Below are positions 1 to 876 of a stretch of DNA of 18,466 nt, piece after piece. Location of the stretch: positions 1 to 18,466 of the IMG/VR virus record IMGVR_UViG_2872164251_000003, one strand, 5' to 3'. This stretch comes from a virus (lineage: Duplodnaviria > Heunggongvirae > Uroviricota > Caudoviricetes). Below the pieces are notes generated by a model that saw only the letters and a list, made by a program, of their open reading frames with translations, was not told the DNA's origin and ran no database searches. Made by a program: the position numbers and the translations under genes. The stretch's first letter is position 1, and the number at the start of each line of letters is the position of its first letter.

Positions 1-504
1 TTACTGATAGTGTTTTATGTTCAGATAATGCCCGATGACCTTGTCATGCAGCTCCACCGATTTTGAGAACGACAGTGACTTCCGTCCCAGCCTTGCCAGA
101 TGTTGTCTCAGATTCAGATTATGTCGCTCAATGCGCTGAGTGTAACGCTTGCTGATAACGTGCAGCTTTCCCTTCAGGCGTGATTCATACAGCGGCCAGC
201 CATCCGTCATCCATACCACGACCTCAAAGGCCGACAGCAGGCTCAGAAGACGCTCCAGTGTGGCCAGAGTGCGTTCACCGAAGACGTGCGCCACAACCGT
301 CCTCCGTATCCTGTCATACGCGTAAAACAGCCAGCGCTGACGTGATTTAGCACCGACGTAGCCCCAATGTTCGTCCATTTCAGCGCAGACAATCACATCA
401 CTGCCCGGTTGTATGCGCGAGGTTACCGACTGCGGGCTGAGTTTTTTAAGTGACGTAAAACCGTGTTGAGGCCAACGCCCATAATGCGTGCACTGGCGCG
501 ACAT
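1..504 (-). CDS. insB: IS1 transposase InsB (167 aa, intact)
   Basis: ORF translation [16 protein letters not shown]...[12 protein letters not shown] matches IS1 InsB as recalled; overlaps insA in the -1 frame as in IS1. Confidence 0.9.
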
Positions 505-698
505 CCGACGCCATTCATGGCCATATCAATGATTTTCTGGTGCGTACCGGGCTGAGAGGCGGTGTAAGTGAACTGTAGTTGCCATGTTTTACGGCAATGA
601 GAGCAGAGATAGCGCTGATGTCCGGCAGTGCTTTTGCCGTTACGCACCACGCCTTCAGTAGCGGAGCAGGAAGGACATCTGATGGAAATGGAAGCCAC
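423..698 (-). CDS. insA: IS1 InsA (91 aa)
   Basis: [46 protein letters not shown]... with zinc-finger-like CxxC...CxxC N-terminus typical of IS1 InsA. Confidence 0.9.
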
Positions 699-753
699 GC
701 AAGCACCTTAAAATCACCATCATACACTAAATCAGTAAGTTGGCAGCATTACC

Positions 754-876
754 GCCCAGGGCAATGTTCTGCCTGTTCTGTACGGTGAAATGCGCGTGGG
801 GTCGCGGGTGGTATCTCAGGAGATCAGCACGGCAGACGAAGGGGATGGTGGTCAGGTTGTGGTGATTGGTCGCTGA
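754..876 (+). pseudogene. I: 3-prime remnant of lambda-like tail assembly gene I, truncated by IS1
   Basis: Frame starting at 754 reads AQGNVLPVLYGEMRVGSRVVSQEISTADEGDGGQVVVIGR-stop (TGA 874-876), matching the C-terminus of lambda gpI as recalled; directly precedes J as in lambda; upstream portion replaced by IS1. Confidence 0.6.

Follow-up and report, generated by a model that had tools for sequence, protein, structure and literature searches.

[quoted passage not shown] A plug formed by residues 159-175 seals the tube, C-terminal strands thread through gpJ, and residues 184-223 are ordered in the solved lambda tail tips (PDB 8IYK and 9E7M; PMC11101478). A closer relative of the locus described here is found in EIEC FDAARGOS_943, an almost complete lambdoid prophage inserted at the lambda attachment site with the order ybhC-int-xis...terminase-head-tail-K-I(213 aa)-J-lom-stf-tfa-ipaHa(587 aa)-ybhB-bioA. 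The succession I-J-lom-stf-tfa-ipaH(587 aa)-ybhB is common to this prophage, the Shigella "ipaH islands," and the present locus. The genomes of Shigella are also known for rearrangements at IS1, and the genome papers on S. flexneri 2a 301 and 2457T are said to describe IS1-mediated adjacent deletions and inversions along with the IS-driven decay of prophages. With such rearrangements the present case shares a 768-bp IS1, its ends and transposase frames intact, set in a novel joint that lacks a target duplication; the segments that it joins lie far apart and are differently oriented in E. coli K-12. By default, of course, IS1 is expected to enter DNA by simple insertion with a target duplication of about 9 bp.

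The DNA analyzed here is a stretch of 18,466 nucleotides, called the window below. Its positions 1-14416 are 100% identical to positions 9065-23480 of a locus (L004) in the chromosome of Shigella flexneri 3b SFL1520 (CP032513.1), a hybrid assembly of long and short reads (PMC6424224). In the available text of the SFL1520 genome paper, the area appears as the fourth phage region, a cryptic Sf6 remnant with an intact oac; the phage region is called a recombination hotspot, and 152 IS1 ORFs are counted genome-wide (PMC6424224). That available text does not describe the exact breakpoint reported below, namely, I codon 173/174 plus a scrap of invertase gene beside pgl (PMC6424224), and phage-region coordinates are absent from the paper's supplement. 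Downstream of the window follow oac, ybhB(-), bioA(-), and bioBFC(+). The J protein has exact matches at two places in SFL1520: this locus and a second prophage on the aspS side (L003). Very probably, a lambda-like prophage with ipaH as cargo once lay at the lambda attachment site between ybhC and ybhB, window positions 754-9564 are what decay has left of its right arm, and the IS1 at their edge is a rearrangement breakpoint rather than a simple insertion. The features of this part of the window are listed in Table 1.

Table 1. Features from the start of the window to ipaH, with coordinates in the window
Feature	Position	Strand	Basis
IS1 element, 753 of 768 bp	1..753	-	Pfam; 99.7% identity to annotated IS1
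Gene I 3' remnant, last 40 codons + stop	754..876	+	100% identical to lambda gpI 184-223
I-J intergenic spacer with conserved GC hairpin	877..936	+	Alignment with intact-I loci
Gene J, central tail fibre/tip attachment protein, 1159 aa	937..4416	+	Six gpJ Pfam domains
lom, Ail/Lom outer membrane protein, 199 aa	4484..5083	+	Pfam Ail_Lom, E 2e-128
stf-like side tail fibre gene, 471 aa	5147..6562	+	Pfam phage_tail_N
DUF4376 protein, tfa (tail fibre assembly) position, 207 aa	6513..7136	+	Pfam DUF4376, gene order
Small conserved ORF, 59 aa, between tfa-position gene and ipaH	7136..7315	+	Called in L004 and L003
ipaH effector, LRR + NEL E3 ubiquitin ligase, 587 aa	7316..9079	-	Pfam NEL, LRR_TTSS

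How does the locus compare with these relatives? Gene order across I-J-lom-stf and the I-J spacer are as in lambda, and gpI 184-223 is identical, but only 40 of the 213 I codons remain, no K gene lies upstream, and ipaH takes the place of the lambda b region beyond the fibre genes. With the FDAARGOS_943 prophage the window is collinear from 754 to 9564, at 99.2% identity over 754-3966 and 97.6% over 4351-9564; no alignment was obtained for positions 3967-4350 at the 3' end of J. It is this collinearity that identifies the phage genes of the window as the right arm of the ipaH prophage, cut at I codon 173/174. The two differ on both sides of the shared arm. Left of I codon 174 the window locus has IS1 and an inverted pgl block instead, and in SFL1520 ipaH is separated from ybhB by an Sf6-like remnant that carries oac. 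A segment of about 300 bp (window ~9265-9564; L016 4256-4555) is single in the EIEC gap between ipaHa and ybhB and double in SFL1520, where one copy lies by ipaH and the other by ybhB, flanking the Sf6-like/oac mosaic. The duplicated segment may be the site at which this mosaic was inserted or recombined, or else a shared scrap of an IS.

The remnant of gene I is short and well defined. The earlier note had taken 754-876 for the last 40 codons of an I-like gene, and a database check bears this out: the translation, AQGNVLPVLYGEMRVGSRVVSQEISTADEGDGGQVVVIGR*, is identical to lambda gpI residues 184-223 at 40 of 40 positions (E 7e-26), and homology to intact I genes starts exactly at 754, which corresponds to gpI residue 184. 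At the DNA level, over 100 lambdoid phages align with window 754-1500 at about 95% identity where their annotated I gives way to J, and the I-J spacer is invariant in the alignment with relatives that have an intact I. Since the intact gene in this prophage type encodes 213 aa, 19% of it is left here. A Pfam search of the 40 residues gave no match, only because the Lambda_tail_I profile (PF06805) covers gpI residues 14-97; that N-terminal domain, helices H1 and H2, and the plug (159-175) are all missing from the remnant. Nor does the frame have a usable start, as the IS1 repeat contributes an in-frame TAA (736-738), with no in-frame ATG ahead of the one at 790.

Gene I is damaged in other S. 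flexneri copies as well. In four of them (L003, L022, L023, and L011) a run of five G residues has become four by the loss of 1 bp (GCCGGGGGTAGG to GCCGGGGTAGG), and the resulting frameshift leaves two ORFs in place of I, one of 120 aa (or 87 aa) and another of 97 aa, which is annotated as "tail assembly protein I" on 682 contigs. The aspS-side paralogue of SFL1520 is among these copies (L003 9300-9940, CP032513.1 ~1.20 Mb). The frameshift is absent from the EIEC copies L002 and L019, which are annotated with the same I protein, from S. boydii Sb227, and from CP099865.1. To judge from these copies, gene I had probably become a pseudogene in S. flexneri by the time IS1 cut it, the frameshift site itself being deleted at the present locus. 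In E. coli 24AR0376 (NZ_CP195347.1, L001 5548-7377) an independent IS1 lies inside I at another site, with both halves of the gene present, and in CP026815.1 (L020 10334-14588) an independent IS1 lies inside J of a related prophage. Together, these two cases indicate that IS1 insertions recur in this tail-tip region.

The element that cuts gene I is a bona fide IS1. Its InsB' frame (1-504, minus strand) matches Pfam DDE_Tnp_IS1 (E 1e-73), its InsA frame (423-698, minus strand) matches Zn_ribbon_InsA and HTH_Tnp_IS1, and an A6C -1 frameshift motif (TTAAAAAAC), readable on the minus strand at ~442-450, joins insA and insB'. Annotated IS1 copies in thousands of E. coli genomes are 99.7% identical to window 1-753, and near-identical copies carry the annotation of an IS1 family transposase with programmed frameshift. 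The window begins 15 bp inside the element, so that the outer 15 bp of its insB-side end lie outside; the complete IS1 is found at L004 9050-9817, with 768 bp and both terminal repeats. The expected hallmarks of the family are all there: a length of ~768 bp, imperfect terminal inverted repeats of ~23 bp (GGTAATG...CCAACTTACTGAT), and insA plus insB' frames. The 23-bp repeat at 731-753 (ATCAGTAAGTTGGCAGCATTACC) is IRL. While the element does abut the I remnant at 753, as the earlier note had it, this end is the insA-proximal one and is "right" only in window coordinates. Four local IS1 copies differ at 4 substitution sites, together with a 4-bp insertion in copy #2, and these sequence variants contain no sign that the element is a hybrid.

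What adjoins IS1 on its left? Over the 9 kb of L004 recovered to the left, IS1 is followed by 366 bp, pgl(-), another IS1, ybhH(-), another IS1, and ybhJ(-). Thus the insA-side end adjoins I codon 174, and the opposite end adjoins a 366-bp scrap of prophage end beside pgl. This scrap differs from the normal E. coli region upstream of pgl and matches only two EIEC genomes, where it forms the end of a different ipaH prophage and contains a DNA-invertase pseudogene; IS1 is located within this invertase scrap. The 5' part of I does not occur in these 9 kb, and all prophage genes upstream of I codon 174 are absent from the locus. A target duplication is lacking too, the left flank being CATTTGTTG and the right flank GCCCAGGGC, although perfect 9-bp duplications accompany three neighboring IS1 copies, the two further left and the one at 16550-17321 (TGAGTAACC, ACTTATTGC, and TGTCTTATG). 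The missing duplication, combined with scrap and pgl on the far side, marks IS1 as a rearrangement junction. The claim that IS1 truncates I therefore stands insofar as the element does cut the gene, but the simple insertion that the wording implied does not; the upstream DNA, which the earlier note had proposed to inspect, lacks the 5' part of I and shows no IS1 target duplication. The orientation of the neighboring genes is also altered. In K-12 the order is pgl+ ... ybhJ+ ybhC- ybhB- bioA-, whereas SFL1520 has ybhC(+)...ybhJ(-)...pgl(-) as a block turned around with respect to ybhB-bio, which keeps the K-12 orientation.

How did IS1 come to join these segments? In the model favored here, an IS1 copy upstream of pgl would have become joined to a site, or to a second IS1 copy, in gene I, by either intramolecular transposition or recombination between two inverted IS1 copies. 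The result would be one inversion, with one end in gene I and the other in the invertase scrap upstream of pgl (about 56 kb on the EIEC map), that separated int through K and the 5' part of I from J. A single inversion of this kind would explain the inverted block, the joint of scrap, IS1, and I', and the missing duplication. Simple insertion has custom on its side, with 9-bp duplications at the three neighboring copies and the case of E. coli 24AR0376, where IS1 sits inside I between both halves. It calls, however, for the 5' three-quarters of I and the tail module just beyond IS1, together with a 9-bp duplication, and what is found there is prophage-end scrap and then pgl, with flanks (CATTTGTTG and GCCCAGGGC) that do not match; the same structure recurs in an independent assembly, and an undisturbed insertion has next to no probability. 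Could the structure be an artefact, a false join of two IS1-ended contigs? The genome has about 150 IS1 copies, and the stretch from I' to ipaH is itself a two-copy repeat. The assembly combines long and short reads, though, and both IS1 junctions are found in a contig from another strain, AFGW01000029.1, which spans three IS1 copies, is 99.92% collinear over 14.9 kb, and has ybhC(+) beyond ybhJ(-); a third assembly (AKMX01000031.1) shares the right junction. These independent assemblies, reached by way of a recorded plus-strand ORF at 579-788 (a junction-spanning minus-strand ORF at 727-963 is not on record), indicate that the junctions are not an assembly error, and the idea of a false join is scarcely credible.

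A more serious, though less probable, competitor of the inversion is a one-sided deletion adjacent to IS1. In this case, the pgl block would already have been inverted when IS1 beside it removed the neighboring DNA up to I codon 173, so that the prophage genes were lost rather than relocated. Such a deletion likewise predicts an intact IS1, no target duplication, and one original flank, and other strains show different IS-bounded cuts, such as one by an IS3-family element in H beside ybdM/N in FDAARGOS_713. It requires a separate, earlier inversion to bring pgl(-) beside J(+), whereas a single IS1 inversion covers both. The two models part at the reciprocal junction. The inversion predicts, left of ybhC, the 5' part of I, then GCCCAGGGC, and then IS1, in letters ...GATAACATGGTTGCCCAGGGC joined to GGTAATGACTCC, the insB-side end of the element; beyond this reciprocal IS1 would come CAACAAATG and then the remaining half of the invertase scrap. 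An exact search of IMG/VR found neither this predicted junction nor the window's own IS1/I' junction, which served as a positive control, and an exact search for the IS1/I' junction in a set of species-representative genomes, one that excludes the source strain, found none. The predicted I'::IS1 chimeric peptide had no exact match. A search for homologues of the 97-aa C-terminal I ORF returned no reciprocal-junction protein, and one with K returned no representative identical to Shigella K. One candidate, a protein ending in ...DNMVA (P0242), proved to come from another I in CP026815.1, altered by a point mutation and still followed by J. These negatives agree with a deletion but count for little against the inversion, as controls failed or pseudogene products are not on record. 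The IS1-mediated inversion is the simplest model; proof of it over deletion would come from the reciprocal junction.

To the right of the breakpoint, J holds all of the gpJ Pfam domains, with a length matching that of its EIEC and S. boydii relatives, and J, lom, the stf-like gene, and the DUF4376 gene are all open at lengths equal to those in relatives. The stf-like ORF, full length when compared with EIEC, would encode 485 aa if read from the ATG at 5105, against 471 aa as called in L004. For the DUF4376 gene, gene order is the same in the EIEC loci L002 and L019. The 59-aa ORF that follows has no Pfam match and is 96-100% identical in the related loci compared. The cargo gene ipaH, at the right end of the prophage, is collinear with EIEC ipaHa, the neighbor of ybhB. 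Some 60 bp before the ipaH start, at 9138-9154 on the minus strand, lies a MxiE-box-like sequence, GGCGCGTTTTTTTAAAG, with 3 mismatches to the consensus, all within the first four positions; at 2 or fewer mismatches this consensus had no match. The predicted motif suggests that ipaH may retain regulation linked to type III secretion. A second match with 3 mismatches, at 10759-10775 inside a tailspike fragment, is probably due to chance.

Does the openness of these genes mean that they are maintained? The earlier note was right that J, lom, and stf keep full-length reading frames here, yet in S. flexneri FDAARGOS_713 J has a stop at codon 285. In this strain (CP054892.1), the same locus has H'-M-L-K-I-J contiguous, with no IS1 in I but with the G5-to-G4 frameshift of the paralogous copies, and is cut further to the left by the IS3-family element within H; it represents an intermediate state. 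Both FDAARGOS_713 copies, bio side and aspS side, carry the TAC-to-TAA change at J codon 285 and a 1-bp deletion causing a frameshift in stf. Such a stop shows that J is not kept open throughout the species. J is also split in another related locus (L024) and, as mentioned, interrupted by IS1 in CP026815.1 (L020). The paralogues were compared over window 754-8243 against L003 9818-17376 and L023/L022. Within SFL1520, this locus and the aspS-side copy are nucleotide-identical across J, lom, and stf, and the identity takes in I' as well; within FDAARGOS_713, the two copies are identical to each other across I'-J-lom-stf; between the two strains, 11 sites differ in window 754-6632, the J stop and the stf deletion among them. 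The conversion tract is longer in SFL1520, reaching ~8221-8243, and from ~8244 on, in the LRR region of ipaH, alleles follow the locus and not the strain. Gene conversion makes the paralogous ipaH prophage remnants of a strain evolve in concert. J, lom, and stf are still open only because the decay is recent and gene conversion with the second copy keeps them identical.

A contrasting view would be domestication, in which J-lom-stf-tfa is kept by selection for a use to the host, be it at the surface, in adhesion, or for the stability or expression of ipaH, and the IS1 inversion would lock the cassette in place away from int and xis. Four consecutive full-length ORFs, two nucleotide-identical copies per genome, and an excess of synonymous over nonsynonymous change in lom are what one might expect of it. 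Against the closest EIEC homologue, however, the 12 substitutions in J comprise 10 nonsynonymous and 2 synonymous changes, a pattern that fits neutral drift and not purifying selection. Gene conversion explains the identity between the copies, no promoter-like site was found facing J from IS1, and the broken copies of J and stf just described add to the case, making domestication very unlikely. Decay is the better account, and the remnant probably persists by its linkage to ipaH.

The rest of the window is a mosaic of IS elements and P22/Sf6-like fragments. An IS3-family element of full length (1310 bp; orfA of 108 aa, orfB of 296 aa, and an ALIL frameshift pseudoknot), which we take to be IS629-like, is accompanied by a 976-bp partial inverted copy. 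In the intervals 9554-10529, 10530-14802, and 14803-16112, IS3-family copies bracket a 4.3-kb P22/Sf6-like piece with the tailspike head-binding domain, gp16, gp20, and a truncated gp7, and the tailspike resumes at 16113 on the opposite strand. The bracketed piece is oppositely oriented in FDAARGOS_713, which points to an IS-mediated inversion polymorphism. The second IS1 of the window (16550-17321), in the same orientation as the first, lies in the Sf6-like tailspike gene within the perfect 9-bp duplication TGTCTTATG; it is 772 bp long, as a 4-bp insertion breaks insB and shortens its ORF from 167 aa to 126 aa. The two direct IS1 copies, with 15.8 kb between them, do not form a composite transposon: the outer flanks (CATTTGTTG and TGTCTTATG) differ, and the second copy has a private duplication in the tailspike gene as well as the insertion that breaks insB.

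What remains of the prophage could hardly make a tail. The remnant lacks head, tube, and tape-measure genes, H, V, M, L, and K, and it has no late promoter. In place of the complete tail module of a functional lambdoid prophage, the DNA upstream of IS1 contains pgl, ybhH, ybhJ, and ybhC, and downstream of the tail genes are ipaH, IS3-family elements, and Sf6-like fragments. With no linked M, L, K, H, V, or head genes and only the C-terminal strands of gpI, the remnant cannot build a tail. An intact I, which would have spoken against this, does not occur in the remnant, and the paralogous prophage in the same genome has a frameshifted one. That the tail module is non-functional, as the earlier note had held, is thus inferred from gene content, every gene upstream of I codon 174 being absent, and this makes a stronger case than the argument of the earlier note.

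Overall, the locus is a case of ordinary IS-driven decay of a Shigella "ipaH island," a known process with no departure from the known behavior of IS1. What is added here is the corrected structure of the breakpoint, the identification of an uncut, ancestor-like prophage, and the pattern of gene conversion, and the significance beyond annotation is small. In practical terms, annotation should show the lambda-like genes at this locus as a non-inducible remnant; that J, lom, and stf look "intact" is no evidence of a functional tail or of selection, and the IS1 is to be handled as a structural breakpoint in comparisons of Shigella genomes. The missing target duplication is the mark of a secondary rearrangement, and the locus also illustrates gene conversion between paralogous remnants. 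As a teaching example, it displays the stepwise, IS-driven erosion through which a prophage leaves its virulence cargo gene, ipaH, fixed in the chromosome.
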